From: Planctomycetota bacterium
Lineage (GTDB): Bacteria > Planctomycetota > UBA1135 > UBA2386
Assembly: GCA_016794035.1 (NCBI GenBank)
Contig: JAEUHS010000016.1
Coordinates: 6,536-70,535 of the forward strand
Length of the DNA: 64,000 bases
Direction of reading: 5' to 3'
Position 1 is the stretch's first letter, and each line of letters begins with the position of its first letter. Position numbers and translations under genes: made by a program. The notes beneath the pieces are model-generated. The model was not told the origin of the DNA and did no database searches. It saw only the letters and a program-made list of their open reading frames with translations. Shown in pieces: positions 10,976-58,280 of the stretch.

Positions 10976-11034
10976 GATCCACCTCGGCGTCTTGCGCGCC
11001 GCGAATGGGAACCGGAAGCGACGGCCATGTGGCC

Positions 11035-11185
11035 GTTCCTCGCGGATGTTCTGGCTCCCGGATCGGCCTACTGACCCGCCTTCCCAGGTCGCCGACACGG
11101 CGATCCCAGTGGCACTTGGGCGTTCGTTCCCGGTGACAGCTGCGGGACAGCGCCGGAATCACACCGGCTTCCCCGCGAGGAACCG
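11035..11185 (-). promoter_or_regulatory. cobalamin (B12) riboswitch aptamer, 5' leader of the 10975 gene
   Basis: Minus-strand read: cGGTTCCTCGCGGGGAAGCCGGTGTGATTCCGGCGCTGTCCCGCAGCTGTCACCGGGAACGAACGCCCAAGTGCCACTGGGATCGCCGTGTCGGCGACCTGGGAAGGCGGGTCAGTAGGCCGATCCGGGAGCCAGAACATCCGCGAGGAACgg. It carries the conserved core GGGAA.CCGGTG.GA.TCCGG..C.G.CCCGC..CTGT, plus GCCACTG, GGGAAGGC and a B12-box-like GAGCCAGAAC. A perfect 10-bp P1 helix (GTTCCTCGCG/CGCGAGGAAC) closes it. The aptamer ends 59 nt before the ATG. Not verified with a covariance model. Confidence 0.8.
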
Positions 11186-11186
11186 C

Positions 11187-11214
11187 AGGGTATCCGGACC
11201 GGCTCCATGCACAA
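11187..11214 (-). promoter_or_regulatory. candidate sigma-70-type promoter of the riboswitch transcript
   Basis: -35 TTGTGC (11214-11209), a 16-nt spacer, and -10 TACCCT (11192-11187). The predicted TSS falls at the 5' edge of P1. This is a pattern match only. Confidence 0.25.
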
Positions 11215-11321
11215 GGGAAAGTGCGCCGCCGGCCGGCGCGGGACTTGCCTGATGGCCGCCGCGGCACGAGAAACCACGGTTGCCGCCGACCCTCGTCCCT
11301 GCGGTCGTGTCCAACCAGCCC

Positions 11322-22403: not shown

Positions 22404-25331
22404 TCAGCGCGGCGACGGGCGCACGCCGTACGGCGCCAGCTCGCGCGCGAGCGCGTCGGTCCAGCGTTCGAACTGGACGGCGCCGGCGGCGTCGAGGTGT
22501 GCGTCGAGCGCGCGGCACGCCGCATCCCAGCAGGCGATCGCATACGACTGCGCCGGCACCTGGGCGCCGTCGAGCGCGGCCACATCGCAGAACGACAGCA
22601 GATTCCGGCGCCACCGGTCCTGCCAGGCAGCGAGATCGAAGCTGCCGGCTGCCGCCGGTTCCAGGGCCGTCGTGCGCAGCAGGTCGGCAGCCGGTCGCAG
22701 CGTCGTCGGCAGTTCGGCGGCGCGCCCGACCAGCGCCGCCGCGAAGCCGCCGCGCGCGGCGGCGGCGGCGTTCGGGTTCCACCAGGACTGGACGAGCAAC
22801 GGCAGGCCGATCGCGAGCAGCATGGCGCCGGTCGCGACGGTCCAGCGCCGACGCCGGCGGCGGACCGCGGCAGCGCGTTCCTGCAGCACTCGCTCGCCGG
22901 CCTGCTGGCACTGCGCCGCGAGCTTGCGCCAGTGCTCCAGCAATCGCAGCAGGCGTCCGGGGGCTTCGGTCTCGTGGCCGGACGCGGCCACCGCCGCCGC
23001 GACCTCGTCGATCGTCGCGCGGATGATCCGTGCCCGGGCTGGCAGCTCCGAGGTGCCGTCGAGCTGCTGCTCGGCCATCGCGGCGTGTTCGAGCGTGATC
23101 TGCGTCTCGACGTCGCGCAGGTCCTTGGTGTAGAGCATCGCGCGGTCGGCGGCGACGTTCATCGTCAGCAGGTGCAGGCAGTCGCGCCGCTCGGTCAGCG
23201 CCTGCAGCCGATCGGCGAACGACGACGACGGGTCGTCCTGCAGCGAGCCGTAGCGCGTCGTCAGCTCGACGTTGCGGCGCACGGCGGCGTCGACCTCGAG
23301 CCGGCGGCGCCTGGCGTCCGCGAGGCGGGCCTGCAGGCGCGCGGCTTCGGCACGGTCGTGTTCGTCGAGCGGGTTGAGTTCGGCGACCGCACGTTCCATG
23401 TCGAACAGCCCGGTCGTCCAGTGGCCGCGCGCCAGCGCGCTCTCGGCGCCCTCCGCGAGCCGGTCGCGCGTCGCCCGCGCCTGGTCGAGGCGCAGCCGCA
23501 GCGATTCGATCGCGTCCTGCAGCTGACTGCGCGGCTGCTCGGGCCGGTCGACGAACGCCTCGAGGATGCGGAACGTGTCCAGCCGCGCGAGCGCGGCCTG
23601 CAGCGGGCGCACCGGCACCGGCACGGAGCGCAGCAGCGCCTCCGCCTCGTCGCGCGCCTGCCAGGCCCGATCGGTCAGGTCGAACAGCGCCTGGCTCAGC
23701 GCCTCGTACGCCGGCGTCACCGGCGGCAGGTGGGGGAACTCCTCGCTGAGGTTGACCAGCGTGATCTGCAGGCTGCGCAGGCCGACGACGCCGGTCGAGG
23801 ACTCGTGGCGCGAACGGCCCTGCACGGCGTCGACGGCGGCGGCCACGAAGCTGGTCAGCGGCGCCAGCGCCACCGCATCCCAGAGGGTCGCCACGCGCTC
23901 GACGTTCGGTTGCGCCCGGGCGACGCGTTCGAGGTAGAAGCCGAGCCGATGCAGCTGGTCGCGCTGCCGCGTCGCCGTCGGCGACACGCCGCCGTGGCGC
24001 GCCGCCATCGCCTCGATCGCCTGTTCGGTGCCAGCGAGGTCGAGCCGGCTCTCGGCGCCGAGGATGGCCTGCGTCTGCTGCGCCAGTTCCTCGCGCGCCG
24101 CGCCGAGCTGGCGTTCGAGCTGCTGCAGGTAGCCGATCGGATCGCGGTGCAGGCGCGTCGCGGCGGCGGGGGGCACGCTCGGGATCGCGCAGCCGCCGGG
24201 CAGCTGCAGGCAGTCGTGTGCGAGCCGTCGGGCGTCGTCGAGCCATTCGGCCGCGGCGGCGAACTCCTCCGACCGCCGCAGGGTGTCGATGTGGGCCGCG
24301 GCGTCGGCGAGCAGACGCCCCGCGGTCTGGCAGAGCGTGCGGCGCCACTGCAGCGTCTCGCGGTGGCGCGGGAAGCGCTGCAGCACGCGCGCGGCGGTCG
24401 CCAGTTCGCGGCGCAGGGCCGCCGGCTCGGTCGGCAGCGCGCGCGGGATCGTCAGCAGCTGCGGCAGCCGACGCAGCCGGCCCCGGCTGTGTCGCACCCA
24501 TGCCGCCAGCGCCGGGCGCATCGCCGCGAACGTCGGCGGTTGCAGGACGCCGCGCGCGGCCGCGTCGAGCACCGCCTCTTCGGCGTCGCCGTCGAGGCGC
24601 GTCGCCAGTTCGTGCAGCGCCGCCGCGGCCGCGCCCGCGGTCGGTCGCCGCTGCGGGTCCGGATCGAGCAGGCGTTCGAGCAGCGCGACCACGGCCGCGG
24701 GTTGCGGCAGGGCCGTGCTGCCGCCGCCGCTCAGCAGCCAGCGCCACGTCGCGCCGAGACCGAACACGTCGCCCGCCGCGCTCGGCGGTTCGTCGGCATG
24801 GAACTCGCTCGGCATGGCGCGCGGCGGCGAGCCGTCGGCGCCGTTGGTCGGCGAAGGAATCGGGGCCGCATGCTCGAAGTCGAGCAGCAGCGTGGTCGCC
24901 TGCGTCGCCAGCAGGTTCTTCGGCCGGACATCGCCGTGGCAGATGCCCGCCGGCGCCGTGGCGGTGCGGATCGCATGCAGCCGCGCGAGGGTCTCGGCCA
25001 CCGGCGCCAGCAGGCGGCACGCCAGCGCGGCCGGCAGCGCACCCTGCTCGCCGACCAGGCGGTCGAGGTCGGTGCCCTCGACGAACGTCGTCGTCAGGCA
25101 CGGCCGCTGCGTGGTCGGGTCGAGCGCGCAGTCGAGGTAGGCCACGACGCCGGGACCGGCGCCGCACCGTCCCATCGCCAGCTCCCGTTCGGCGTCGGCG
25201 AGCGAGCCCGACACGACCAACTTGCGGACCACGCGTTCGCCGCGGACCGGGTCCGTCGTGACGAACACGGTCCGGTGCGGCGAAGCGTGCAGCAGCCGGT
25301 CGGCGGCCGCAGAAGCGGCGGAGCGGGTCAT
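22404..25331 (-). CDS. atypical protein-kinase-like domain protein with ~650-aa helical region and a C-proximal TM helix
   Basis: This is the real 3' part of ORF 22404..27359, starting at ATG 25331. Kinase elements VVRKL (beta3 Lys), AERELAMG (alphaC Glu), CHGDVRPKNLL (catalytic loop) and LLDFEHA (DFE in place of DFG). No GxGxxG loop. TM helix WTVATGAMLLAIGLPLLVQSWW. Confidence 0.7.
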   Translation of the reverse strand: MTRSAASAAADRLLHASPHRTVFVTTDPVRGERVVRKLVVSGSLADAERELAMGRCGAGPGVVAYLDCALDPTTQRPCLTTTFVEGTDLDRLVGEQGALPAALACRLLAPVAETLARLHAIRTATAPAGICHGDVRPKNLLATQATTLLLDFEHAAPIPSPTNGADGSPPRAMPSEFHADEPPSAAGDVFGLGATWRWLLSGGGSTALPQPAAVVALLERLLDPDPQRRPTAGAAAAALHELATRLDGDAEEAVLDAAARGVLQPPTFAAMRPALAAWVRHSRGRLRRLPQLLTIPRALPTEPAALRRELATAARVLQRFPRHRETLQWRRTLCQTAGRLLADAAAHIDTLRRSEEFAAAAEWLDDARRLAHDCLQLPGGCAIPSVPPAAATRLHRDPIGYLQQLERQLGAAREELAQQTQAILGAESRLDLAGTEQAIEAMAARHGGVSPTATRQRDQLHRLGFYLERVARAQPNVERVATLWDAVALAPLTSFVAAAVDAVQGRSRHESSTGVVGLRSLQITLVNLSEEFPHLPPVTPAYEALSQALFDLTDRAWQARDEAEALLRSVPVPVRPLQAALARLDTFRILEAFVDRPEQPRSQLQDAIESLRLRLDQARATRDRLAEGAESALARGHWTTGLFDMERAVAELNPLDEHDRAEAARLQARLADARRRRLEVDAAVRRNVELTTRYGSLQDDPSSSFADRLQALTERRDCLHLLTMNVAADRAMLYTKDLRDVETQITLEHAAMAEQQLDGTSELPARARIIRATIDEVAAAVAASGHETEAPGRLLRLLEHWRKLAAQCQQAGERVLQERAAAVRRRRRRWTVATGAMLLAIGLPLLVQSWWNPNAAAAARGGFAAALVGRAAELPTTLRPAADLLRTTALEPAAAGSFDLAAWQDRWRRNLLSFCDVAALDGAQVPAQSYAIACWDAACRALDAHLDAAGAVQFERWTDALARELAPYGVRPSPR

Positions 25332-25526
25332 GGAGGCAAGGGCGCCGGCGCGCACCGCGGGTGCGGTGACGAGCCGTCGACAGCAGGGGTGGATCCGCGT
25401 CGGCAAGCCGAGGTGGTGGCGGACCACGCCAAGTGTAGCAGCGCGTCGGGCCCCGGGCAGGCCGTTCGTCGACGGGAATCCGACACCCCACTGCCCAGGC
25501 TGGCCGGCATCGGCGACAATCCGACG

Positions 25527-27377
<1,851 letters not shown>

Positions 27378-27386
27378 CCGGCGCGA

Positions 27387-28034
27387 CTACTCGTTCTTCG
27401 GCAGCGACGAGATGAAGCGGTCGGCCTCGTCGATCGACTTCTGCATCTCCGCGACGAGGCCGGCGACATCGGTCTGGATGCGCACGGCTTCGTCCTGCAG
27501 CGAGCTGATCGCCGCCGCGTTCAGGTTGTGCTTCAGGAACAGCACCTGGTCGTTGAACGCCGTCAGCACCGGCTGCATGCGCTGCTCGGCGGCCTGCATG
27601 GTGCCGATCAGGGTCGCATAGCGCCGCTCGGTGTCGCCCTTCATCTGCTCGCTCTGCGCCCGCAGCTTCGGATTCTGGATCTGGCCGATCTCCTCGCCCC
27701 ACTCGGTGAACATGTCGCGGCTGACCTTCTCGATCGAGGCGATGCGCGACGTCACGTCGGCGGCGCGCGCGACACTGGTGTCGTAGAGACCCTTGAACTG
27801 CTTGTACTTCTTCTCGAGTTCGCCGCCCTGGAAGCCGGTCAGGCCCTGGAACGCCTCGAACGTGGTCTGGATCTGCTGCTTGGCTTCCGACTGCGATTCG
27901 CGGGCCTCCTGGACGCGCTCGACCAGGAGGTCGCGCTTCTGGTAGCCGAACTTCTCCATCGTCGCGTAGTAGATGCCGCTGCACGCGGTGAGGGTCGACA
28001 GCAGGAGCACGGTGGGGATCTGGCGCATCGTCAT
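27387..28034 (-). CDS. DUF2959 family lipoprotein
   Basis: This is the real 3' part of ORF 27387..29105, starting at ATG 28034. Lipobox LSTLTAC. YYATMEKFGYQKRDLLVERVQEARESQ...FNDQVLFLKHNLNAAAI matches my memory of DUF2959. Confidence 0.8.
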   Translation of the reverse strand: MTMRQIPTVLLLSTLTACSGIYYATMEKFGYQKRDLLVERVQEARESQSEAKQQIQTTFEAFQGLTGFQGGELEKKYKQFKGLYDTSVARAADVTSRIASIEKVSRDMFTEWGEEIGQIQNPKLRAQSEQMKGDTERRYATLIGTMQAAEQRMQPVLTAFNDQVLFLKHNLNAAAISSLQDEAVRIQTDVAGLVAEMQKSIDEADRFISSLPKNE

Positions 28035-28172
28035 CGGGGAGGTGTGGTGTGGCACCGTTGTCCACGCGGCACCCCGACCGCTCAAGAGGTTGTTCGAGCG
28101 AGACGCCCGGACCAGCGGTTTGCCCCGTTCGTACGATACTCGCGGCAAGCCCGTTGCTAGGTTTGGCCGCCC

Positions 28173-29108
28173 TTGCAGTCTCGCCCCTCGGACCCTGTCG
28201 CGACGCTGACGGTCGTCGGCGACGTGCATCGCTGGTGGCGGCCCGCCGATGCCGCCTTTCTCGAGCGTACGCGCCCCGACCTGTCGCTGTTCGTCGGTGA
28301 CCTCGGCGACGAGGACGTGCCGATCGTGCGTGCGATCGCGTCGCTGCCGGTGCCGAAGGCCGTGATCCTCGGCAACCACGACGCCTGGCAGAGCTTCGGC
28401 CGCCGCGTCGCGACCGACAGGCTGCGCGAGTCGCTGGAGGTGCTCGGCGAGGACCACGTCGCCTACGCGGTGCGCGAGGTGCCGCGCGCCGGCCTGTCGC
28501 TGATCGGTGCGCGGCCGTTCTCGTGGGGCGGCCAGAGCCTGCGCAGCCCGGAGCTCTACGACGAGATCTACGGCATCCACACCGCCCGCCAGTCGGCCGC
28601 GGCGATCGTCGACGCGGCGCGCAACGCGCAGCACCGCGACCTGGTGATCCTCGCGCACAACGGCCCGCTCGGGCTCGGCGACCAGAGCCACGACATCTGG
28701 GGCAAGGACTTCGGCAAACCGGGCGGCGACTGGGGCGACCGCGACCTCGCCTTGGCGATCCAGCGCATCGAGGGCTTCGGCCTGCGCGTGCGCGCGGTCA
28801 TCGCCGGCCACATGCACCATCGCCTGGTGCACCCGCGCGGCGGCGAACGCACGCGCTTCGTGCGCCGCGGCGGCACCATGTTCCTCAACGCGGCGTTCGT
28901 GCCGCGCGTGCAGAAGGCCGAGAACGGCGACGAGCTGTCCTACTTCCTGCGCACGCGGTGGCAGGCGGGAGAGTGCGTCGCGGTCGAAGAGGTCTGGGTC
29001 GACGTGCACGGCGACGAGCGCGAGGCGAGCACGCCGACGTTCGTCGAACTGGAGGGCGGCGCCCCGGCCGTCGACGAACTGCACGAAGGCGACGAGCCGG
29101 CGCAATAG
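28173..29108 (+). CDS. calcineurin-like metallophosphoesterase
   Basis: TTG 28173. Motifs VVGDVH, VGDLGDE, LGNHDAW, LAHNGP and AGHMHH. Confidence 0.8.
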   Translation: MQSRPSDPVATLTVVGDVHRWWRPADAAFLERTRPDLSLFVGDLGDEDVPIVRAIASLPVPKAVILGNHDAWQSFGRRVATDRLRESLEVLGEDHVAYAVREVPRAGLSLIGARPFSWGGQSLRSPELYDEIYGIHTARQSAAAIVDAARNAQHRDLVILAHNGPLGLGDQSHDIWGKDFGKPGGDWGDRDLALAIQRIEGFGLRVRAVIAGHMHHRLVHPRGGERTRFVRRGGTMFLNAAFVPRVQKAENGDELSYFLRTRWQAGECVAVEEVWVDVHGDEREASTPTFVELEGGAPAVDELHEGDEPAQ

Positions 29109-45801: not shown

Positions 45802-48800
45802 TCACGTCGGGCGCGGGTCGACCTGCAGCAGGTCGTTGACGGCCGCCAGCAGGGCGCCGATCGCGAACGGCTTCTCCAGCAGGCGCAGCGGGCCGTCGGC
45901 GCCGGTGCCGAGGTCGCCGGCCTCGCCGAAGAAGCCCGACACGAACAGCACCGGCAGCCCCGGCCGCTCCGCGGTCAACGCCGCCGCCAGTTCGCGGCCG
46001 CCCAGGCCCGGCATCACGACGTCGGTGATCAGCAGGTCGATCGTGCCGCGATGCCGGCGCGCGACGGCGAGCGCGCTCTGGCCATCGCTGGCGAGCAGCA
46101 CGGTGTGGCCGGCGCGCTGCAGCGCGCGCTGCACGAGGCCGCGCACCGGCGCCTCGTCCTCGACCAGCAGGATCGTCGCGGCCGCCGTCGGCGTCGGTGC
46201 CGCCGGCGCGACGGGCTCCGCCCCGGCGGCGCCCGTCGTCGACGGCAGCCGGATCCAGGCGGTCGTGCCCACGCCCGGTTCGCTCTCGAGCCACGCGTCG
46301 CCGCCGCTCTGCCGGGCGATGCCGTACACGGTCGACAGGCCGAGCCCGGTGCCCTTGCCCGGTCCCTTGGTGGTGAAGAACGGGTCGAACGCGTGCGAGC
46401 GCACGGTCTCGTCCATGCCGGTGCCGGTGTCCCGCACCCACAGCAGCGCGTGCGGCGCCGAGTTCTCGGTGCCGGGGACGTTGGCGACGCCGATCGTCAG
46501 CGTGCCGCCGGCCGGCATCGCGTCGCGCGCATTGACGACCAGGTTCAGCAGCACCTGTTCCATCTGGCTGCGATCGACGCGCACCGGCACCGGCCCGCCG
46601 GGCCGTTCCTGGCGCAGCTCGATGCTGGCGCCGATCAGGCGCTGCAGCAGCTCGGCCAGTTCGTCGACGATGGCGGCGAGGTCCATGACGTGGGGCGCCA
46701 GCAGCTGCTGGCGGCTGAAGGCCAGCAGCTGGCGCGTCAGCCCAGCGGCCCGCGACGCTGCATCGAGGATGCCGCGGGTGTCGGCGCGTCGCGCGTCGTC
46801 GGACGGCAGCGACTCGTCCAGCGCTTCCGCGTAGCCGACCACCGCGGTCAGCAGGTTGTTGAAGTCGTGCGCGACGCCGCCGGCGAGCTTGCCGACGGCC
46901 TCCATCTTCTGCGCCTGCCGCAGCTGCTCCTCGAGCGACTTGCGCGCGGTGATGTCGGCGACCACGCCGACGTAGGCACCGCCGCCGTCGAGGCCGCGCA
47001 CCAGCGTGCTCGACACCAGCGCCCAGAACCGCGACCCGTCCCGGCGGTGCAGCTGCATCTCGTCGGCCTCGTGCTGTCCCCGGTCGGTGCACAGCGAGGC
47101 GAGGTCGGCCAGATGTGCGGCCGGCAGGTCTGCGTCCGTCGCGACGAGGCGCAGCATCTCCTCCGGCGAGTCGTAGCCGAACAGCTCGGCGAAGCGTTGA
47201 TTGGCATAGGTCAGGCCGTGACCGTGCACGCAGCGGAACAGGCCCTCGGCGACGTGGCGCTGGATCGACACCAGCAGCGACTCCCGTTGTTCGCGTTCGA
47301 TGACGACGCCCGTGAGCACCGCGGCCCGTTCGACCAGTTCGATCTGCGCGGCGGTCGGCTGCCGGGGTTCGCGGTGGTAGATCGCGAAGGTGCCGACGGG
47401 TCGGCCGGCCGGCGAACGGATCGGCACCGACCAGCACGCGCGCAGACCATGGCTGGCGGCCGCTTCCCGCGCGATGTCCCAGGCCGGGTCGCGGGCGATG
47501 TCCGCGGTGATCACCGTGCGATTGTCGTGGGCCGCCGTGCCGCAGGTCCCGACCGCGGGACCGATCTCGATGCCCTCGATCGCCGCGCTGTAGCCCGACG
47601 GCAGCGAGGGAGCGCAGGCGAGGTGCAGCCGGCGGCCCTGCAGCAGCAGGATCGAGCCCATGCCGCGGCCCATCTGGCCCTCGATGCCCCGCACGATCTC
47701 GGTGAACACGTCCTGCACCGGCCGCGCCGTGGCGACGAGTTCGAGGATGCGGGCCTGCCAGGCCAGCAGCCGCTCGATCGCGGCGCGCTCGCTGACGTCG
47801 CGCACGATGCCCAGCACCTCGTCGTCGGCGAGACGGATGAAACGCGCCTCGCGCACCCGGTGGTGATGCGGCGGACTCAGCGGATACTCGATCGCACCGG
47901 AGCGACCATGGGTGCAGGCGTCGTCGATGGCGCGCAGCATGCGGTCGGCGACGTCGGCCGGCACCAGCGCCTCGAGCGGCTGGTCGATCAGGCGCTCGCG
48001 CGGCGTCGGCAGCGGCACGCCTTCGGGCACCAGCGCGTCGAGCACGGTGCCGTCGCGGCGCATGCGGTAGACGACGTCCGGCAGCACGTTCAACAACGCC
48101 GCGCGCAGTCCCTCGCTGCGGAACCAGCCCTGTGCGTTCGCCTGCCGCTCGGCGAACAGGCTGCCGAACACCAGCGGCACCGCCAGCAGCATCAGTTCGA
48201 AGATCTGGATCGCGGTGTGGCGCTCGCGCAGCGACGCCAGCTGGAACGGGCCGATGGCGTGGCTCGACGCGACGGTGACCGTGACGGCCGCGAGGAACGA
48301 CGCGGTCGTGGTGCCGCGCAGGCCGAAGCGCCACGCGACCGCCAGCAGCAGCGGCACCAGCCCATAGAGCATCACGATCGAGGTCGCGTTGGCGGACAGC
48401 TGCGTCAGCACGCCCCACGCCATGCCCGATATCACCGCCATCAGCAGCGCACCCTCGAGCAGCGGTCGCGGCCGCAGGCGCGGGCGCCCGCCGGCGGACC
48501 AGGTCAGCACCAGTGGCACGACCGCCAGCACCCCGAGCGCGTTCATGCGCCACCAGCCGTAGTAGCCCGACGCGCGCGGGCCGACGCCCACCACCGTGCA
48601 GAAGATCGTCGACGTCACGACGCTGGCGAGCGGCGCGACCGCCGCCGTGAGCAGCAGCGCCAGCACGTCGCGCAGCCGGGCGAACGCCGCCTGGCAGCCA
48701 CACGCGCGCAGCACCAGCACGCCGACCACCGCCTCGGCGGCGCTGCCGAGCCCGGCGGTCACCGCCGCCGCGGGCAGATAGTCGTTCCACAGCCGCTGCG

Positions 48801-48990
48801 CGACGACCGCGGCGAAGACGACGGCCGCCGCCGGCAGGCCCAACAGCCAGGTGCCCGCGACCGCGACGCCGCTCGGCAGCCAGACGATGGCGTGGGTGAC
48901 GGCCGGTCCGTCGAGGGCGTGCAGCAGTCCTGCCGCGACGAACGCGAGCAGGAACGCCACGTAGCGCAGGGTTCGTGTCGCCGCGGGCAT
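45802..48990 (-). CDS. hybrid sensor histidine kinase/response regulator (MASE1-like membrane domain, PAS, GAF, PAS, HisKA, HATPase_c, REC)
   Basis: About 8 N-terminal TM helices ([17 protein letters not shown]). H-box [11 protein letters not shown]. ATPase motifs [16 protein letters not shown] and GTGLGLS. Receiver motifs [17 protein letters not shown] and LEKPF. Confidence 0.9.
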
Positions 48991-49028
48991 CGCCGCCCGA
49001 GGGTAGCGAGCGCCGCCGGGCGACGCAT

Positions 49029-49047
49029 GGGGGGGGGCGCCCCCGGG
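49029..49047. repeat. G/C-only element GGGGGGGGGCGCCCCCGGG (G9 run plus the 12-nt palindrome GGGGGCGCCCCC)
   Basis: Read directly. It lies between the Kelch-1 stop (49048) and the HK start (48990). Confidence 0.9.
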
Positions 49048-50397
49048 TCAGAGTCCGAGCGTGGTCACGACCGCGTTCGAGACGGTGGCGCCGGCCGGGT
49101 TGACGCCCGGATCGAGACACAGCGCCTGCGCGTAGATGCGATCGCCGACGGTGCCGATGGTCGGGTTGTAGGTGAACGACGCCATGCCACCGGCGCTGGT
49201 GACGTTGACGAACGCGTCGGGGAAGGCGTAGCCGGCGCAGCCCGGCAGGCCGACGAAGTCGAGCGCGAGGCCCGGCAACGCGGACAGGCCCAGCACGAAT
49301 GCCACGGCCTGCGGCGCGGTGTTCAGGTCGGTGAGCACCAGCCGGTAGTCGCCGCCGATGCGACCGGCGTCGGGCATGCTCAGCGCCGGCACGCCGTTCG
49401 AACCGGGGCAGCCGACACCGTAGGCACGCCAGCGGGCGCCGAACTCCCAGGTCTGGTTGGAGAGCGTGTTCGGACTCTGCGTGAAGCCGCCGAACTTCAC
49501 CACCTGTCGCCGCGTCGGCAGGAATGCGAGCGAATGGTCGCGCGCCGGCTGCGTCGCCGTCGGCTGCTGCGTCCACGCGGTGCCGTCGAACTCCCACGTG
49601 TCGGCGAAGATCGTGGTCGCATCCTGACCGCCGGTCAGCACGCAGACGCCGCGCAGGTCGTCGTAGACCATCTTCGCGGCGTTGCGCGGCGACGGCCTGG
49701 CGCCGGCGATCGGCACCGGGGTCCAGTTGACGCCGTCGTAGGTCCAGGTCGCGTCGAACAGCGTGCTGCTGAACGCGCCGCCGAACAGCACCGTCTTGCC
49801 GAGCGCCGCGTGGTAGCACATCGCCGGCCGGTCCAGCGCGCCGGGGTTCGCCGCGGTCGTGATCTGCACCCAGTTGACGCCGTCGTACTCCCAGGTCTTG
49901 TTCGACGGGATGCCGACGCCGGCGCCGACGCCGCCGTAGACGACGACGCGCGCGCGGCCGATGTCGTAGCAGATGCCGTTGCGGAACAGACCGCCGGGGT
50001 TCGTGGCGGGCGTTCGCAGGCTCCAGTCGACGCCGTCGAACTCCCAGGTCTCGCTGCTGGCGCCGCCGGCGGAGCCGCCGTAGAGCACGACCACGCCGCG
50101 CAGCAGGTCGTAGGTCATCTCGACCTCGATGCGGCCGCTCGGCGACGTCGCCGGGGCGAGCTGCGTCCAGTCGACGCCGTCGTAGACCCAGGTCTCGTTG
50201 CTCGGCGCCGGGTTGCCGGTGCCGCCGAACAGCAGCGCGCCGCCGACGCCGGGCGCGAACGTCATCGCCGCGCCGCGCCGCGCCGTCGGCGAGGTCGCGG
50301 GGGACTGTTGTTCCCATTGCGTGCGCGCCAGCAGCGGGGCCGCCGGGGCGGCGACCGAGACGGAGAGCAGGAACAGGGTGGTTGCGGTTCGAGGCAT
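49048..50397 (-). CDS. secreted Kelch-repeat beta-propeller protein with unassigned Cys-containing C-terminal module (paralog 1)
   Basis: ORF 49048..50508 trimmed to ATG 50397, with signal peptide MPRTATTLFLLSVSVAAPAAPLLA. Six blades with the recurring pattern hhhFGG...(E/D)TWE(F/Y)DG..W. The C-terminal 124 aa contain GCPGSNGVPAL, GLPGCAGYAF and QALCLDPGVNPAG. Confidence 0.85.
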   Translation of the reverse strand: MPRTATTLFLLSVSVAAPAAPLLARTQWEQQSPATSPTARRGAAMTFAPGVGGALLFGGTGNPAPSNETWVYDGVDWTQLAPATSPSGRIEVEMTYDLLRGVVVLYGGSAGGASSETWEFDGVDWSLRTPATNPGGLFRNGICYDIGRARVVVYGGVGAGVGIPSNKTWEYDGVNWVQITTAANPGALDRPAMCYHAALGKTVLFGGAFSSTLFDATWTYDGVNWTPVPIAGARPSPRNAAKMVYDDLRGVCVLTGGQDATTIFADTWEFDGTAWTQQPTATQPARDHSLAFLPTRRQVVKFGGFTQSPNTLSNQTWEFGARWRAYGVGCPGSNGVPALSMPDAGRIGGDYRLVLTDLNTAPQAVAFVLGLSALPGLALDFVGLPGCAGYAFPDAFVNVTSAGGMASFTYNPTIGTVGDRIYAQALCLDPGVNPAGATVSNAVVTTLGL

Positions 50398-50636
50398 CGG
50401 CGTCGGGTCGGCTGTGGGCACGATGCCACAGGCGACATTGGCGCGCGATCGGCCGGCGGAATCCGCGGAAACGGGCCGGCCCGTCGCCGTTGCGTTTCGT
50501 GGTTGCACTCCGTCCGTGAGGACCCGGATCCCGAGGCATGGAACGTCGTTGCGACCCAGCCTCTCGCCGCTGAGCTGCGGCGCGCAGCGCCGTCAGCTCC
50601 AGCATGGGCGGGCGTAGCCGCCACCCCGCACGTTCC

Positions 50637-52028
50637 CTAGTAGCCGAGCACGATCGTCGCCGCGTTCGACACGGTCAGCCCGGCGCTGTTGACGGTCGGA
50701 TCGACGCCGATGCCCTGCAGGTAGTAGGCGTCGCCGAGCTGGCTCGGGATCTGCGGCAGATCGTAGGTCCAGGACGCGGTGCCATTGACGACCGGCAGCG
50801 TCACCAGCGCGTCGGCGCTGGTGTAGGCGCGACAGCCCGGCATGCCGAGGCTGGTCAGCAGCATCGGCAGGCTGCCGAGCGGCCATTGCGTGCGGCTGAG
50901 CCCGACCGCCATCGCGGCGAGCGTGCTGCCGGGCGGCAGGTTGACGATGTCGACGCGCAGCTGGGTGCCGAGCACGGGCAGCGCGCCGAGCACCAGCTGC
51001 GGCGTGCCGGCGGTGCCGGCGCAGCCCATGCCGAACGCCTGGAACTGGGCGCCGAACTGCTGGGTGTCGTCGCGCAGGCTGTTGTTGGCCGTCACACCGC
51101 CGAACGCGGTGATGCGGTCGTGCACGAAGTCGTGCGCCATCGCGAAGTCCGAGCGCGGCGGATACATGCCGCCGTAGAGCGGATCGAGCTGGCGCCAGGT
51201 CGTGCCGTCGAACTCCCAGCTGTCGTTCTGGATCACCTGCGTCACCGGATCGCGGCCGCCGGTCAGCATCACGACGTTGCGGCTGAGGATCGCCTCCATG
51301 CGCGCACCCACCCGGGCCGACGGCTTGGGCCCGGTGATCGCCACCAGTTGCCAGTCGAGGCCGTCGTAGGTCCAGGTCTCGTCGTGGGCGTTGCCGCTGT
51401 TGTCGGCGCCACCGAACATCACGGTCTTGCCGATCGCGGGCAGGTAGGCCATCGCCGCGTCGGTCAGGCCCGGCGGCGAGTTGATCGTGGTCACCACATG
51501 CCAGTCGCCGCCGTAGTACTCCCACGTCTCCGCGAGCGCGGACGTCGGCTGGTAGAGGTTGAAGCGTCCGCCATAGAGCACGGTGACCTGGCGGCCGAGG
51601 TCGTAGGCCATCATGTGCCGCGCGCGGCCGAGCGGTGTGCTGGTCGGCGCCTGCTGTTGCCACGCGGTCCCGTTCCAGGCCCAGGTGTCGTCGGCGGCGA
51701 ACGGCGACGGGCTGCCGCTGGCGTCGATGCCGCCGTAGAGCAGGATCTCGCCGGTGATGGAGTTGGCCGCCATCGCCGACCGCTGCCGCGGCGACGGCGA
51801 GACCGTCGGCTGCAGCTGCGTCCAGGTGCCGTTGGCGAAGCTCCACAGCTCGTTGCCGGCGTTGCCGCCGAACATCAGCATTCGGTCCTGCAGCACGTCG
51901 AAGGCCATCATCGCGCCCTGCCGGGCGGACGGGGTCGTCGGGGTCGTCACCGGGCCCCACTGCGCGGCGACGGCGGTGGTGGTCGCGAGAGCGGCCAGAG
52001 CCGCACGGAGGACGGAGTTCGAGTTCAT
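50637..52028 (-). CDS. secreted Kelch-repeat beta-propeller protein (paralog 2)
   Basis: ORF 50637..52073 trimmed to ATG 52028, with signal peptide MNSNSVLRAALAALATTTAVAAQ. Same blade pattern. The C-terminal 132 aa contain GCAGTAGTPQL, GMPGCRAYTS and GIGVDPTVNSAG. Confidence 0.85.
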   Translation of the reverse strand: MNSNSVLRAALAALATTTAVAAQWGPVTTPTTPSARQGAMMAFDVLQDRMLMFGGNAGNELWSFANGTWTQLQPTVSPSPRQRSAMAANSITGEILLYGGIDASGSPSPFAADDTWAWNGTAWQQQAPTSTPLGRARHMMAYDLGRQVTVLYGGRFNLYQPTSALAETWEYYGGDWHVVTTINSPPGLTDAAMAYLPAIGKTVMFGGADNSGNAHDETWTYDGLDWQLVAITGPKPSARVGARMEAILSRNVVMLTGGRDPVTQVIQNDSWEFDGTTWRQLDPLYGGMYPPRSDFAMAHDFVHDRITAFGGVTANNSLRDDTQQFGAQFQAFGMGCAGTAGTPQLVLGALPVLGTQLRVDIVNLPPGSTLAAMAVGLSRTQWPLGSLPMLLTSLGMPGCRAYTSADALVTLPVVNGTASWTYDLPQIPSQLGDAYYLQGIGVDPTVNSAGLTVSNAATIVLGY

Positions 52029-52058
52029 GGGTCTTCGAGTCTGCGGGGTGATACGAAA

Positions 52059-52090
52059 CGGAGAGTGAGCCACCGGGCGCTCACTCTCCG
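52059..52090 (-). terminator. perfect 12-bp hairpin followed by UUU, 47 nt after the Kelch-3 stop and 30 nt before the Kelch-2 ATG
   Basis: Minus strand reads CGGAGAGTGAGC-gcccggtg-GCTCACTCTCCG-ttt. It could be an intrinsic terminator or a processing/attenuation site. Confidence 0.4.
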
Positions 52091-52136
52091 CGTGGCCGCG
52101 CAGCGCGGCCGGGGGGTTCCGAGCGACCGACCGGCC

Positions 52137-53593: not shown

Positions 53594-56500
53594 TCAGTTC
53601 TTGAACCGCATCGCGCGGGACCCGATGCGCCAGACCAGGCCCAGCTGGTTGGACACGAACAGCTCGGGGCTGCCGTCGCCGTCGCTGTCGGGCACCGGCA
53701 GCAGGCAGCTGCCGAACCCCTGCACGGACGGGTGCGGCAGCAGCGACGAGGCGTCCAGTCCCTGCGCGGTCCAGAACTCGATCGCGCCCGTCGATGCCGT
53801 GCCGCCCAGCGGCGCGCCGATCGCCACCAGGGGCGGCCCCGTCGCACGCCGATAGGCGGCCACCGCGAAGCCGAACTCGATGCCGGGCTTGTGGCCGCGG
53901 ATCTCGCCCAGCCTGGCGCCGGTGCGGCCGGAGAACAGCTGCACCTGGTCGACGTTGCTCGTCGTGCCATCGCCGACCGCCGAGATCACCACGTCGCCGC
54001 GGCCGTCGCCGTCGACGTCGCCGATGCCGGCCACCGCCATGCCGAAGCCACGGTCGGGTGACGGGTCGCTCCAGGACTGCAGCACGGCGCCGGTGCCGGT
54101 GGAGTAGAGCCGCACCAGACCCGGCGCGCCGCCGACACGCCCCCCGTAGTTGCCGCCGACCAGCAGGTCGTCGCGTCCGTCGCCGTCGGCGTCGCCGGCG
54201 TTGGCGATGCAGGCGCCGAACCAGACACCGGGCACGTCGTTGCGCAGCGTGGACAGCACCCGGCGCGTGCGGCCGGAGAAGATGTCGACGCGGCCCTGCG
54301 GCGCGGTGTTGCGCACCAGCGCCGCGGTGGCGACCGCGAAGTCGGCGGCGCCATCCCCGTCGACGTCGCCGAGGCCGGCCACGGCGACGCCGAAACCCGG
54401 TTCGCCCTCGAGCTGGGCGAGGCGCTGCCGCGTGCGGCCCGACCACACCTCGGCGAGGCCGAACTCCGCGTCCCGCGTGCCGGCCGGTGCGCCGATCAGC
54501 CAGTCGCAGGCCCCGTCGCCGTCGACGTCGCCGATCCCGGCGAGGCTGTGGCCGAAGATCTGTCCGTCACCGTCGCCTTCGATCGAGTCGACGAGTTCCG
54601 CGGTGACGCCGTCGACCAGGAACACACGGCCCGGCGCCTCGTACGGGTCGCGGGTCGCGGCGCTGATCAGCACGTCGTCGATGCCGTCGCCGGTGCGGTC
54701 GTCGACGCGGCTCAACGCGTGACCGAACATCAGCGCGGGCGCCAGGTCGGCGGGCGGCATGGCGAGTCGCAGCGGGACTCCGGTCCAGGCGCCGCCGGGC
54801 AGCTGCAGCGAGACGTTCTCGACCATCAGCGTCAGCGTCGGTGCCAGGTAGGGCAGCAGCCAGGCGGCGCCCGCCGCGAGCAGGCGCAGCCGCAGGTCCT
54901 CGGCGCGGTGGAGCGGCAGGTGCGCGACCAGCAGCGGCACCGCGAGCAGCGCATTGCCGGCCGCCGTGTCGAGCAGGCGCTGTGCCCTGCCGGCGGCGCG
55001 CATCTGCAGTCGCACGTCGCGCACGAGGCGCAGCAGGAACACGAAGTTCGTCGCGATCGTGGGTGCGAAGCTGCGGATCGGCATCTCGCCGCCGAGGAAC
55101 GCCCTGCCGGTCGCGTCGGCCCCGGTGCGTGCCAGGCCCTCCCGGTAGAGTTCGCTCAGCCCGCCGATGCGCAGGATCTCGAGCAGGTCGGCGACCGTAC
55201 CGCGGGAACCTTGGCGACCCAGATCCTGGTCCAACACCGCCAGGACCTCGTGCGCGTAGCTGCCGAGGTCCCGCTGCTGCAGCGCGACACGCGCCCGATC
55301 GAGGCGGAACCGGGACACCTCGGGCCACCCGTGCACGAGGCTGTCGAGCACGCGAGCCGCGACCGCGAGGTCGCCGCGACGCTGCGCCAGCTGGGCGATC
55401 CGGTGCAGCGGGGTCGGGTCCGACGGGTCCCGCCGCGCCAGTTCGCGGTAGCGGTCGGCGAGGTCGCCGTCGACCTCGGTCGCGGCGCGCAGGTCGAGTT
55501 CCACCCGCTGCCGCAGCAGGGCGACGCTGTCGTCGTCGCCGACGCCGGCGAGCCAGCGGCGGGTCGCCTGCAGGTCGCCGATCGCCAGCGCGGCATCCGC
55601 CAGCGCGAGGCGGAGGATCGCGGCGTCCGGGAACGACCGCTGGGCGCGCTGCAGGTGCGCATAGGCGAGGTCCGGCAGCCCGTCGGCCAGCAGGCGCATG
55701 CCGAGCGTGGCGCTGATCAGCGGTTCGTCGCGTTCGAGCGGCGAGATCCGTTCCCAGGCGCGCTCGCACAACCGGAAGTCCCCGAGCAGGAAACCCAGCA
55801 GGCCGGCGGTGGCGCGGTCTTCGTCGTCCGCCAGCGCCTCTTCGCGCAGCATCGGATCCGGATCCCGGCTGCCGAGGGCGAGGCTGCGTGCCGCTTCGAC
55901 CGTGAAGTCGCCCAGGCCCGCACAGAGCCGGCGGAACTCGTCGCTGGCGAGGGCGGTGTGCAGCTTCTCCGGCGCACCGACGGACAAGCGCCGCAGCCAC
56001 AGCGACAGCTGCGCCACGTCGCGTTCGAGCCGGGCGGCACGGTTGTCCGGATCGAGCGCGACGGCCTGGTCGTACTCGCCGATGGCGGTGAGCAGCGGCG
56101 CCGTCGTCGGCCCGCCCGCCGGGGCGGCCGGGTCGGTGGTGCTGCCCTCGTCGATGCCGCGCTGGGTCAGGCGCCGGCTCTCGATCGAGAAGATCTGCTG
56201 CCGCGCCGCCTGCACGTGGGCGCGCGCCGTGTCCTTCGAGCGGCCGGACGCCTGCACCCGGTCGAGGATGGGCACCATCGCGGCGGCGACCAGCGCGGCG
56301 CCCAGGGAGCCTGCGAGCAGGTGGTTGCGGTGGCGGCGCAGGAACTTGCCGGCGCGGCGCAGGGCGCCGACCGGGCGGGCCTGGATCGGCTGCAGGTCGA
56401 GCAGGCGCTGCAGGTCGTCGGCGAGCTCGCCCGCGCTCGTGTAGCGCCGGTCGGGGTCGACCTCCATCGCGTGCTGCACGATCGTCTCGAGGTCGCGCGG

Positions 56501-57469
56501 GCAGCCCGGCGCGGCCCGCCGCAGCGGCACCAGCCGGCCCTCCTCGATGCGCCGCAGCTGGTCCGTGGTCGAGCGACCGGCGAACGGCGTCGACAGGGTC
56601 AGGCACTCGTACAGCGTGACGCCGAGGCCGTAGACGTCGCACGCCGGGCCGATCGTCGCGTCGCCGCGCAGTTGCTCCGGCGACGAGTAGACCGGTGTGC
56701 CGGCGAAGCTGCCGGTGCGCGAGATCTCGCGCGACGTCAGCCGCACGAGGCCGAAGTCGACCAGCACCGGCTGGCCGCTGCGCCGCAGCAGGATGTTGGC
56801 GGGCTTCACGTCGCGGTGGATCAGGCCGGCGGCGTGCACCGCGCCGAGCGCGCCGGCGATCTTCGACGCCAACCGGACGAAGAACTGCGTCAGGTTGCGG
56901 GCGCCGAGTTCGGCCAGGGGCAGTCCGAGCCGCTCGGCCACCTGCGCGAGCGTCGGGATCGTGCCCTTGGCGTCGCGATGCGCGCGCAGGTGGTCGAGCA
57001 ACTGCTGCAGGCTCGGTCCGTCGACGAACTCCATCTCGAACGCGAGCACCTCGCCCTCGTCGACGATGCGGTGGATCGCGACGATGTGGTCGTGTTCGAC
57101 CTTGGCCAGCGCGCGGGCCTCGGCGAGGAAACGCGGCCGGCTGCGCGGCGACAGGCCGATCGAGTGCGGCAGCACCTTCAGCGCCACCTCGCGATCGAGC
57201 GACGTCTGCCGCGCGAGGTAGACCGTGCCCATGCCGCCGCGGCCGATCTCGCGCACGATCTCGTAGCCCTGCAGCGACGGCTTCGGCGTGTGCTTGCGGC
57301 CGGCGACCCCGAACGCCAGTCCGAGCGCTTCGTCGAGGCGGTGCGCGACCGTCGGATGGCGCGCCGCGGACCCCGGCAGGTCGGGCTCTTCGCCGTCGAG
57401 CATCTGCGTCAGCAGGTCGTCGAGCAGATCGGCGAACTCCGGGTCCTCCTCGGCGGGCGCGGACGTCAC
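53594..57469 (-). CDS. Hanks-type Ser/Thr protein kinase, single TM, TPR-like helical region and FG-GAP/VCBS (integrin-alpha-like) repeats
   Basis: This is the real 3' part of ORF 53594..58042. GTG 57469 overlaps the sigma-factor TGA (GTGA). Kinase motifs GRGGMGTVYLA, VALKVL, HRDVKPANILL, DFGL and GTPVYSSPEQ. TM helix LLAGSLGAALVAAAMVPIL. Six to seven repeats of the type GDVDGDGxxDhhhG. Confidence 0.9.
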   Translation of the reverse strand: MTSAPAEEDPEFADLLDDLLTQMLDGEEPDLPGSAARHPTVAHRLDEALGLAFGVAGRKHTPKPSLQGYEIVREIGRGGMGTVYLARQTSLDREVALKVLPHSIGLSPRSRPRFLAEARALAKVEHDHIVAIHRIVDEGEVLAFEMEFVDGPSLQQLLDHLRAHRDAKGTIPTLAQVAERLGLPLAELGARNLTQFFVRLASKIAGALGAVHAAGLIHRDVKPANILLRRSGQPVLVDFGLVRLTSREISRTGSFAGTPVYSSPEQLRGDATIGPACDVYGLGVTLYECLTLSTPFAGRSTTDQLRRIEEGRLVPLRRAAPGCPRDLETIVQHAMEVDPDRRYTSAGELADDLQRLLDLQPIQARPVGALRRAGKFLRRHRNHLLAGSLGAALVAAAMVPILDRVQASGRSKDTARAHVQAARQQIFSIESRRLTQRGIDEGSTTDPAAPAGGPTTAPLLTAIGEYDQAVALDPDNRAARLERDVAQLSLWLRRLSVGAPEKLHTALASDEFRRLCAGLGDFTVEAARSLALGSRDPDPMLREEALADDEDRATAGLLGFLLGDFRLCERAWERISPLERDEPLISATLGMRLLADGLPDLAYAHLQRAQRSFPDAAILRLALADAALAIGDLQATRRWLAGVGDDDSVALLRQRVELDLRAATEVDGDLADRYRELARRDPSDPTPLHRIAQLAQRRGDLAVAARVLDSLVHGWPEVSRFRLDRARVALQQRDLGSYAHEVLAVLDQDLGRQGSRGTVADLLEILRIGGLSELYREGLARTGADATGRAFLGGEMPIRSFAPTIATNFVFLLRLVRDVRLQMRAAGRAQRLLDTAAGNALLAVPLLVAHLPLHRAEDLRLRLLAAGAAWLLPYLAPTLTLMVENVSLQLPGGAWTGVPLRLAMPPADLAPALMFGHALSRVDDRTGDGIDDVLISAATRDPYEAPGRVFLVDGVTAELVDSIEGDGDGQIFGHSLAGIGDVDGDGACDWLIGAPAGTRDAEFGLAEVWSGRTRQRLAQLEGEPGFGVAVAGLGDVDGDGAADFAVATAALVRNTAPQGRVDIFSGRTRRVLSTLRNDVPGVWFGACIANAGDADGDGRDDLLVGGNYGGRVGGAPGLVRLYSTGTGAVLQSWSDPSPDRGFGMAVAGIGDVDGDGRGDVVISAVGDGTTSNVDQVQLFSGRTGARLGEIRGHKPGIEFGFAVAAYRRATGPPLVAIGAPLGGTASTGAIEFWTAQGLDASSLLPHPSVQGFGSCLLPVPDSDGDGSPELFVSNQLGLVWRIGSRAMRFKN

Positions 57470-58092
57470 GCTGGATCTCGCGGTTCGTGGGCGTCGGCGC
57501 CGAGGCGCCGCTGCAGCTCGCGGCGGTAGTCGCGCATGCCGCGCACCAGCCGGTCCTTGAACGTCGACAGCGGCAGTCCGAGGCGTTCGGCCGAGTCCTT
57601 CAGCGGCACCTCCTCGAACACGCGCAGGCGCACGACGTCGCGCAGCGGCTCGTCGAGCGCGGCGAGCGCGTGCTCGAGCACCCGGGCGCGTTCGAGATGG
57701 GACGCGGTGCGGCTCGGCGTCGTCGACTGCGGCGGCAGGTAGCCGTCGACCGTGTCGGCGCCCCCGAGGTCCGAGAAGCGCGCCAGCGGCCGGCTGCCGC
57801 CGCGCTTGGTGCGCAGCACGCCGCGCACCGCGGCCCGCACCCGGTTGTGGGCGATGCCGAGCAGCCATGCACGGTACTTGCTCAGGCTGCTCCACTCGTG
57901 CTGCTGGCGATCGCGCCACGCCATCCACAGCGTCTCCTGCCAGATGTCCTCGACCGAGATCTCGAGCCGCACCTCGGCGCCGATCCAGCTGCCGATCACG
58001 ACGAAGATCGTCGCCGCGTCGAGGCTGTCGACGAGGCGACACCAGGTCGTCGGGTCGAGGTGGGGTGCCGGGGACTCGGGAGCGGGCCGCAT
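57466..58092 (-). CDS. ECF-type RNA polymerase sigma factor (sigma-70 regions 2 and 4)
   Basis: ORF 57466..58158 trimmed to ATG 58092. Region 2: VEDIWQETLWMAWRDRQQ. Region 4: LRDVVRLRVFEEVPLKDSAERLGLPLSTFKDRLVRGMRDYR. No anti-sigma gene follows; a kinase does. Confidence 0.85.
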   Translation of the reverse strand: MRPAPESPAPHLDPTTWCRLVDSLDAATIFVVIGSWIGAEVRLEISVEDIWQETLWMAWRDRQQHEWSSLSKYRAWLLGIAHNRVRAAVRGVLRTKRGGSRPLARFSDLGGADTVDGYLPPQSTTPSRTASHLERARVLEHALAALDEPLRDVVRLRVFEEVPLKDSAERLGLPLSTFKDRLVRGMRDYRRELQRRLGADAHEPRDPA

Positions 58093-58280
58093 GCGTGCAG
58101 CAGCAAGACTACTGCGGAACCCCGCCGCCGGGTCGTCCGGGCCGGAACCCGGCCGCACCGGTCCGGCACCGACGGCCGGGAAACGCCGGCGCGAACGGCG
58201 TCCCGGACGCCGGCCGAAACCGCGACCACCGACGCGGCGAGGTCCATCGGCGCACGGCGGATGGTATACGTGACGACTCC

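Follow-up and report, generated by a model that had tools for sequence, protein, structure and literature searches.

The classical switch for a sigma-54 activator is either a small ligand or the phosphorylation of its receiver domain by a histidine kinase, and Ser/Thr-kinase control of such activators through forkhead-associated (FHA) domains has been proposed for Myxococcus, where the mechanism is poorly defined. A divergent gene pair in a 64-kb stretch of DNA from a Planctomycetota bacterium (contig JAEUHS010000016.1; G+C content of ∼73%), referred to here as the window, raises the question of whether one Ser/Thr kinase can be dedicated to one sigma-54 activator. The genes encode a kinase-like protein and a sigma-54 enhancer-binding protein (EBP) (Table 1), and an original prediction made from the window sequence had proposed that they form a pathway from kinase to FHA domain to sigma-54; the coordinates, sizes, divergent 195-bp gap, and motifs that it quoted (VVRKL, CHGDVRPKNLL, and DFE) are all correct. 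In a protein search the kinase-like protein had 100% identity to “hypothetical protein JNM25_02605” of Planctomycetes bacterium. Our comparative sequence analysis indicates that the pair is a conserved, previously undescribed signaling module found in a clade of uncultured, high-GC Planctomycetota. We read this module as a membrane-anchored, probably active atypical Hanks kinase working as one unit with a dedicated EBP, in which an FHA-like domain would serve as the interface and a GAF domain as a second input, a reading to which we give about an even chance of being right.

A protein search recovered ∼96 full-length homologs of the kinase-like protein, and the family is present in 54 species-level genomes, all but one of them labeled Planctomycetota or unclassified bacterium. 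The exception is a contig of 2370 bp (JBERSB010000589.1, locus L050) in a metagenome-assembled genome (MAG) labeled Luminiphilus sp. (Gammaproteobacteria), which is probably a binning contaminant and not a real presence outside the Planctomycetota. In every locus with DNA upstream of the kinase gene (∼45 Planctomycetota MAG species), the EBP gene lies divergently upstream; the loci without it sit on contigs whose end falls at or within that gene. The pair is kept in two loci (L060 and L062) in which the kinase is only 25 to 30% identical and in another (L004) in which the other neighbors differ; in L061, where the kinase is likewise 25 to 30% identical, the N-terminal and AAA+ sequence recurs in a truncated divergent open reading frame (ORF). 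Because the pair persists despite this divergence of the kinase and these differing flanks, its conservation argues strongly for a functional link between the two proteins. The original prediction had staked itself on the pair being retained in related genomes, and every informative locus does retain it.

We examined the kinase-like domain with the profile and structure searches that the original prediction had proposed for it. The window protein contains the motifs VVRK37, E50, CHGD134VRPKN139, and LLLD151FE153, together with H132, D188, and R229. The Pfam Pkinase model (PF00069) matched residues 46 to 200 just past its threshold (32.9 bits versus a cut-off of 31.7), with scores among relatives reaching 82.7 bits. 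When a profile of 94 family members was compared with PDB sequences, the best match was Mycobacterium tuberculosis PknB (E value of 1e-24), followed by PknA, TAK1, and PknE, and the PknB/PknA/PknE-type matches spanned E values of 1e-24 to 1e-19; a Foldseek search of the PDB with the full model returned kinase domains for all of the top 50 matches (TMt of 0.6 to 0.7). Nine residues (K37, E50, H132, D134, P137, N139, D151, E153, and D188) are invariant among the 94 family sequences, and R229 is nearly so. At the family level the catalytic loop is of the Ser/Thr-kinase type, D-V-K-P-x-N, and other eukaryotic protein kinase (ePK) motifs are evident as GGTxGFAPPE (84 of 94 sequences), D188-V-F/Y-G-L-G, and R229-P230. 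By these criteria the domain is a member of the Hanks-type protein kinases and not of the APH/choline-kinase enzymes, since ePK-specific motifs are present in most members and the APH and choline-kinase models score well below Pkinase.

The departures from the canonical kinase core that the original prediction had noted (DFE, no glycine loop, a huge helical region, a transmembrane [TM] helix, and a tail) are family-wide features, with the exception of the tail, which only part of the members have. In place of the Gly-rich loop GxGxxG, the β1-β2 loop of the window protein reads LLHASPHRTV, the family consensus here being LLHCSPxRTV with R20 wherever the alignment has no gap at this position. 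DFG is replaced by D-F-E, or by D-[FLW]-E in distant members, and ∼23 residues that span αG in PknB are missing. Because the catalytic residues are invariant and both the DFE motif and the missing Gly-rich loop are family-wide, it is plausible that the protein is an active phosphotransferase. The change in the activation segment is narrower in distribution: the GT...APE region of the window protein reads GSPPRAMPSE and is degenerate or deleted in its closest relatives too (P0002 to P0008 and P0012), and this degenerate P+1/APE segment, together with Arg136 in the catalytic loop of the window protein alone, suggests relaxed or altered substrate binding in the subclade of the window. An internal contrast to this atypical kinase is found elsewhere in the window (53597 to 58108, minus strand), where a large canonical Ser/Thr kinase with a Pkinase score of 137 bits carries C-terminal FG-GAP repeats.

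An AlphaFold2 model of the full-length kinase-like protein was confident overall (mean predicted local distance difference test [pLDDT] score of 89.4; predicted TM-score [pTM] of 0.65) and resolved the region behind the kinase domain, which is ∼575 aa long, into ∼25 helices of 10 to 43 residues with pLDDT mostly >90. The original prediction had called this region helical and coiled-coil-like; the helices stand, but a coiled coil was not shown, and self-comparison detected no internal repeats among them. Searches against Pfam and PDB sequences found no relative of the helical region, and a phmmer search of 1.84 billion representative proteins gave only 97 matches. In the full-length matches the region sits behind an N-terminal stretch of ∼250 to 390 residues, and a Pkinase domain precedes it in all 10 of the distant matches sampled; judged by these searches, it is a module specific to the kinase family and found only in this architecture. 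Conservation within it is highest in VPVPVRPLQ, LDTFRILEAFVDRP, and ARGHWTTGLFDMERAV; T639 and T640, the sole invariant Ser/Thr residues of the kinase-like protein, lie in ARGHWTTGLFDMERAV. One distant family member (P0325; 1169 aa) has ∼540 extra residues ahead of its kinase domain, with no Pfam match.

A poly-Arg run followed by ∼20 hydrophobic residues occupies the same position, behind the helical module, in nearly all family members. The 19-residue Kyte-Doolittle maximum is 1.64 in the window protein and >2 in most homologs, and AlphaFold2 confidence is low over the hydrophobic stretch of the window protein (residues 822 to 859). Because the poly-Arg run precedes the hydrophobic segment, the positive-inside rule would place both the kinase domain and the helical module in the cytoplasm. 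The tail behind this segment, compared among the 22 members in which a C-terminal hydrophobic segment is clear, is mostly either 14 to 19 aa or ∼80 to 165 aa long; that of the window protein has ∼120 aa and is modeled with confidence as a five-helix bundle.

The divergent partner had been identified as a sigma-54 EBP with a GAF domain, an assignment that Pfam matches to the GAF, Sigma54_activat, and HTH_8 families bear out (Table 1). The AAA+ domain has 89% mean identity among orthologs, and because its Walker A (GETGTGK327), GAFTGA374, and Walker B (FLDEIG396) motifs are intact, the EBP should be competent to activate sigma-54 polymerase. For the GAF domain, Foldseek matched GAF and phytochrome domains in the PDB at E values of ∼1e-7 (for example, 3p01 with a TMt of 0.63). 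In 41 of 42 orthologs the C-terminal helix-turn-helix (HTH) has the same recognition helix, VPRTTYRE(K/R)L; in L060 it reads LPRTTYRERL.

The original prediction had placed an FHA-like domain, described as a phosphothreonine (pThr) reader, at the N terminus of the EBP, and the fold of this domain gives that assignment moderate support. In the AlphaFold2 model, residues 1 to 100 form an all-beta domain of 10 strands (pLDDT of ∼90) that resembles the FHA beta-sandwich of ∼11 strands and is separated from the GAF domain by a disordered linker (residues 102 to 123). A Foldseek search of viral structures recovered, among GAF matches, two “FHA domain-containing proteins” (E values of 1.9e-4 and 9.8e-4); the same type of search of the PDB with the EBP N-terminal model gave only GAF/phytochrome domains in the top 50, so that the Foldseek support for FHA comes from the viral-structure library. 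We also aligned the domain by hhalign to a diverse FHA reference alignment (12 sequences checked against Pfam, 11 of which match PF00498 and the twelfth FHA_2) and obtained an E/P of 0.0054 over 62 columns with a probability of 6.7%; alignment to a low-diversity GarA alignment was not significant (E value of 0.22). The register of the first alignment is the expected one, with WIGG opposite xxGR and LDGDxLNVG opposite LxxGDxIxIG, and G43-R44-V-L-E-V aligns to S-R-x-H-x-x-I, where the manual and hhalign registers are one residue apart. No match was found when an N-domain profile was compared with PDB sequences, and a GarA-family HMM found no FHA domain, the EBP N-domain included, among the 5884 ORFs of the window and the loci. 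The domain is highly conserved: across 45 species its mean column identity is 81%, and 30 of its positions never vary, FWIG and AEPGLPFP among them; by comparison, the kinase-family alignment has 45% mean column identity, and the kinase orthologs are 36 to 70% identical to the window protein.

Two copies of an imperfect palindrome with the 15-bp consensus GTCGG-WWWN-YCG-YC-R lie in the intergenic region shared by the two genes (boxes A and B in Table 1). In the window, GTCGGWWWNYCGYCR matches these two boxes and nothing else, compared with 0.03 occurrences expected. Of 44 orthologous intergenic regions, 35 have both boxes at the same places with a spacing of 40 to 43 bp, and in the loci scanned the strict pattern was confined to this intergenic region. 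The boxes look like an operator or an upstream activating sequence (UAS), and would most simply be an operator governing how the pair is expressed. Nine regions (L016, L020, L021, L022, L029, L034, L039, L040, and L044) lack the boxes, and because the recognition helix of the EBP is the same in these nine loci, the boxes are not assignable to the EBP. Two other motifs, GTCCAGCACCACC and AGTTTCTGCTA, recur in a subset of the 44 intergenic regions, including at least three of those without boxes (L029, L039, and L044). A scan of the kinase/EBP region against Rfam gave nothing.

Taken as a kinase-activator module, the pair could work as follows. The kinase would be held at the inner membrane by its C-terminal TM segment, with the kinase domain and the helical module on the cytoplasmic side, and would sense a membrane or envelope signal through the helical module and, in some lineages, through an extracytoplasmic tail. 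It would then engage the EBP through the FHA-like domain, whether by docking, phosphorylation, or both, and this engagement would relieve or impose inhibition of the AAA+ ring by the N-terminal domains. The GAF domain would supply a second, small-molecule input, and the activated EBP would drive sigma-54-dependent genes elsewhere in the genome. The sequences show the domain anatomy, the invariant catalytic residues, the intact sigma-54 activation motifs, the strictly conserved pairing, and the conserved boxes; kinase activity, physical contact between kinase and EBP, the direction of the signal, and the targets are inferred.

A number of observations weigh against this reading. The Pfam FHA model had no match at an E value of ≤10 in residues 1 to 127 of the window EBP, a profile search of the kind that the original prediction had suggested, nor in any of the 45 orthologs, one of which matched Yop-YscD_cpl at 0.081; the beta-sandwich fold of the FHA-like domain stands by AlphaFold2, Foldseek, and hhalign, but its membership in the Pfam family does not. 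In the FHA reference alignment the G, R, S, and N of pThr recognition are invariant. The Arg of the G-R motif falls on variable position 28 of the EBP domain (R/K at position 29), the S-x-x-H position corresponds to V41-x-G43-R44-V45-L46, with no Ser or His in either register, and the Asn loop is replaced by the invariant EPGLPFP. The description of the domain as a pThr reader is weakened by this absence of the canonical pThr-contact residues (Arg, Ser, His, and Asn), and pThr binding is not to be assumed. In favor of the FHA-like fold, the invariant loops WIG, G43-R44, and AEPGLPFP occupy the positions of the FHA peptide-binding loops; “degenerate FHA-like domain” is the most fitting name for a domain whose conserved face corresponds to those loops. 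On the kinase side, HRD is replaced by HGD in 89 of 94 sequences, which makes the family non-RD, and the Gly-rich loop and the αG region are both missing; decay of the P+1/APE segment beside an unchanged EBP N-domain appears hard to square with canonical phosphorylation of a peptide substrate. On the DNA side, a search for TGGCAC-N5-TTGC with up to two mismatches gave 43 matches in the window, none standing out, versus 67 expected by chance, in agreement with the original prediction, which had found no convincing −24/−12 promoter there. Neither the orthologous intergenic regions nor the DNA nearby has a conserved GG-N10-GC promoter, no sigma-54 gene or RpoN-box motif was found among the ORFs of the window or of the loci scanned, and the recognition helix does not covary with the boxes. 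A simple relay from kinase to FHA domain to sigma-54, with the FHA domain as a pThr reader, is weakened by the degeneracy of the FHA residues, the absence of an RD motif from the kinase, and, in the subclade of the window, the decay of the P+1/APE segment; the same features lend weight to the regulator-target and scaffold readings taken up below.

A variant that accommodates these losses is possible, although we consider it less likely than not. In this variant, which would be a one-step signaling system of a new kind for sigma-54 transcription, the tail-anchored, non-RD kinase with its 575-aa helical sensor or scaffold module would control the dedicated EBP, and the FHA-like domain, having lost pThr reading, would dock permanently on the kinase, for example, on the invariant GHWTTGLFDMER surface. 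Assembly of the AAA+ ring would then depend on the state of the kinase and not on a pThr mark.

We think it unlikely, less so than any of the explanations that follow, that the two genes are simply regulator and target, with the EBP binding the boxes to control both the kinase gene and itself, and the kinase being an output of the EBP that need not touch it. The conserved divergent arrangement, the highly conserved HTH, and the regular box spacing in most of the shared intergenic regions, with the strict pattern found nowhere else in the window or the loci scanned, would all be expected from such an arrangement, for which the divergent pexR-ahpC genes, whose intergenic region of <300 bp holds dyad UAS repeats, are a precedent (PMC12754779). 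However, no GG-N10-GC promoter is conserved in the stretch that separates the boxes from the start of the kinase gene, the boxes are missing from nine loci in which the pair and an identical recognition helix are retained, and the abutment of box A on the EBP start codon fits autorepression better than activation. Control of this kind would also be compatible with an additional link at the protein level, and it and the kinase-activator module are not mutually exclusive.

Somewhat more doubtful still is a scaffold or anti-activator, in which the kinase-like protein, as a nucleotide-binding switch or pseudokinase, would sequester the EBP at the membrane through the helical module and the FHA-like domain and release it on a signal, much as PspA holds PspF. 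Such a role would suit a protein without a Gly-rich loop or αG and with DFE and a non-RD catalytic loop, whose P+1/APE segment has decayed or been deleted in the subclade of the window beside an unchanged EBP N-domain, and it would equally suit an FHA-like domain without pThr-binding residues and a large, conserved helical module next to a membrane anchor. Against it, all of the residues that phosphotransfer needs (K37, E50, D134, N139, and D151) are kept without exception in 94 sequences whose identity falls as low as 25%, which is unusual for a dead kinase, and most of the family has a canonical GT..APE.

It is very improbable that the protein is a small-molecule kinase whose substrate would be a membrane-associated lipid or metabolite. 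Phosphotransferases of the APH, choline kinase, and Kdo types have D-x-E after the catalytic loop and no GxGxxG, and the DFE motif and the membrane anchor of the family would both agree with such an activity, as would a faint Choline_kinase match in the window protein (E value of 0.46; 10.2 bits versus a threshold of 29) and weak matches in relatives to APH (16.5 to 29.9 bits; cut-off, 23.2) and Kdo (16.1 to 24.5 bits; cut-off, 21.3). These matches are nonetheless below or near their thresholds, most of those in relatives being below, and the APH and Kdo scores are all far under the Pkinase score of the same protein; the best relatives are PknB, PknA, and TAK1, and the D-V-K-P-x-N loop and the ePK-only GT..APE, DxxGLG, and subdomain XI Arg are conserved in the family. 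We give equally little credence to coincidental synteny, by which the genes would be adjacent only through vertical inheritance in a narrow clade, for although all carriers belong to one phylum-level MAG group and the wider neighborhood is largely syntenic too, the pair persists with differing flanks (L004, L060, and L062) and with kinases down to 25% identity, and its intergenic regions have a specific cis element in common.

The pair has a frequent companion on the EBP side. In 34 of ∼40 informative loci the EBP gene is followed on its own strand, usually after 26 to 190 bp, by a metallophosphoesterase gene of the TIGR04168 family; six loci have the pair without it. On this gene-order evidence the metallophosphoesterase may be a third member of the module, and it is conceivably a candidate phosphatase. 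In the window, a DUF2959 gene (27387 to 28034, minus strand) is inserted between the EBP and metallophosphoesterase genes. The best sigma-54-like site near the locus, CGGCAAGCCCGTTGCT (28142 to 28157, plus strand), agrees with the consensus at 10 of 12 positions with correct GG-N10-GC spacing and lies 15 nucleotides upstream of the metallophosphoesterase TTG start. We rejected it as a promoter of that gene; the site is not conserved in orthologous loci and is probably a chance occurrence.

Table 1. Features of the kinase/EBP locus, in positions of the window (approximate residue bounds are marked with ∼)
Feature	Position	Strand	Evidence or remarks
Kinase-like gene, 975 aa	22404..25331	-	ORF and start codon; protein begins MTRSAASAAAD
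Kinase domain, residues ∼10-247	24591..25304	-	Pfam Pkinase, family profile versus PDB, Foldseek, invariant columns
Codon of residue 136, Arg for catalytic-loop Lys	24924-24926	-	Lys in 93 of 94 relatives
Degenerate/deleted GT...APE activation segment, residues 156-182	∼24786-24866	-	Family alignment
Family-specific helical region, residues 250-825	22857..24584	-	AlphaFold2; homology searches
Probable single TM segment, residues ∼831-852, RRRRRR just ahead	22776..22841	-	Hydropathy
Five-helix C-terminal tail, residues 858-964, probably extracytoplasmic	22440..22760	-	AlphaFold2, pLDDT ∼90
Divergent intergenic region, 195 bp	25332..25526	.	Orthologous regions 124-389 bp
Box B, GTCGGATTCCCGTCG	25470..25484	-	Second palindrome copy, 41 bp from box A
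Box A, GTCGGATTGTCGCCG	25511..25525	-	15-bp imperfect palindrome abutting EBP start codon
Sigma-54 EBP gene, 616 aa	25527..27377	+	Pfam and NCBIfam; protein begins MPVCLEVTDRAG
N-terminal FHA-like beta domain, residues 1-100	25527..25826	+	AlphaFold2, Foldseek, hhalign
GAF domain, residues ∼125-290	25899..26396	+	Pfam GAF (PF01590), E value 5.6e-9, residues 144-275
AAA+ sigma-54 interaction domain and lid	26424..27161	+	Sigma54_activat (PF00158), E value 1e-69, residues 301-465; AAA_lid_14
Fis-type HTH	27231..27362	+	HTH_8, E value 2.8e-7
TIGR04168-family metallophosphoesterase gene	28173..29108	+	NCBIfam TIGR04168, 258.9 bits; annotated start TTG

Farther out, the window holds a cobalamin riboswitch (Rfam RF00174; 82.3 bits; 11033 to 11221, minus strand) at the 5′ end of a 518-aa ORF without a Pfam match. 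A hybrid histidine kinase with the domain order MASE1-PAS-GAF-PAS-HisKA-HATPase-REC is encoded on the minus strand at 45805 to 49047, and two Kelch-repeat proteins (49051 to 52136, minus strand) adjoin it.

Control of an FHA-type transcription activator by a Ser/Thr kinase is a theme already known in principle. What appear to be undescribed are the kinase family with its substituted Gly-rich loop and DFE motif, the 575-aa helical module, the tail-anchored topology, the combination of FHA-like and GAF domains in an EBP, and the obligate pairing of the two genes; in the protein search they carried only generic names (hypothetical protein, “phosphotransferase,” or “serine/threonine protein kinase”), and we found no description of them in the literature searched. 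A pair of one kinase and one activator that evolution has fixed could allow the logic of Ser/Thr-kinase/FHA control to be dissected. A kinase family in which all catalytic residues are retained but the Gly-rich loop and the DFG glycine have been substituted and αG is gone bears on which parts of the canonical kinase core are dispensable, and the analysis brings to light a large helical domain, confidently folded in the model, without known relatives. The carriers are uncultured Planctomycetota, and immediate impact is confined to in vitro and heterologous work.

Among characterized proteins, the PknB-type receptor kinases (M. tuberculosis PknB, PknA, and PknE) are the closest sequence relatives of the kinase described here, and they share its fold, its K/E/D/N/D residues, and an N-terminal cytoplasmic kinase domain combined with a single TM segment. 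It differs from them in having a conserved H-C-S-P-x-R-T loop in place of the Gly-rich loop, DFE for DFG, and HGD for HRD, in missing ∼23 residues around αG, and in carrying the 575-aa helical module between the kinase domain and a TM segment that lies near the C terminus, with a short or absent extracytoplasmic part.

On the activator side, the GAF domain represses the AAA+ domain in NorR (PMC2941729) and PexR (PMC12754779). The EBP shares the GAF-AAA+-HTH architecture of these proteins, and its GAF domain would be expected likewise to keep the AAA+ domain repressed in the absence of a ligand or signal; as with PexR, which is divergent from its target, dyad repeats that resemble boxes A and B lie in a short intergenic region. 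Unlike NorR and PexR, the EBP has an extra N-terminal FHA-like domain, its divergent partner is a kinase and not an enzyme target, and no sigma-54 promoter was found in the intergenic region.

To go by its title, a 2005 paper by Jelsbak, Givskov, and Kaiser (PNAS 102:3010) reportedly deals with Myxococcus xanthus sigma-54 EBPs that have a forkhead-associated domain. FHA-containing EBPs of M. xanthus are cited as reference 91 in PMC12288465. These proteins and the EBP of the window share an FHA-type domain in the receiver position, which implies Ser/Thr rather than histidine kinases as partners; in contrast to them, the domain here is FHA-like by fold only, lacks the pThr residues, is followed by a GAF domain, and is invariably paired with one dedicated kinase gene. 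PknH and EmbR of M. tuberculosis are a functionally linked kinase and FHA transcription factor encoded by neighboring genes. FHA-containing chains in the PDB include EmbR (2fez) and GarA (6i2p), and the PknB chain of 6i2p is among the matches to our kinase profile. PknH-EmbR and PknB/PknG-GarA resemble the present pair in that a Hanks kinase works with an FHA-type regulator; whereas in those systems a canonical, pThr-reading FHA domain docks on a phosphorylated RD kinase, the pair described here combines a non-RD kinase with a degenerate FHA-like domain and has a sigma-54 AAA+ activator as its output.

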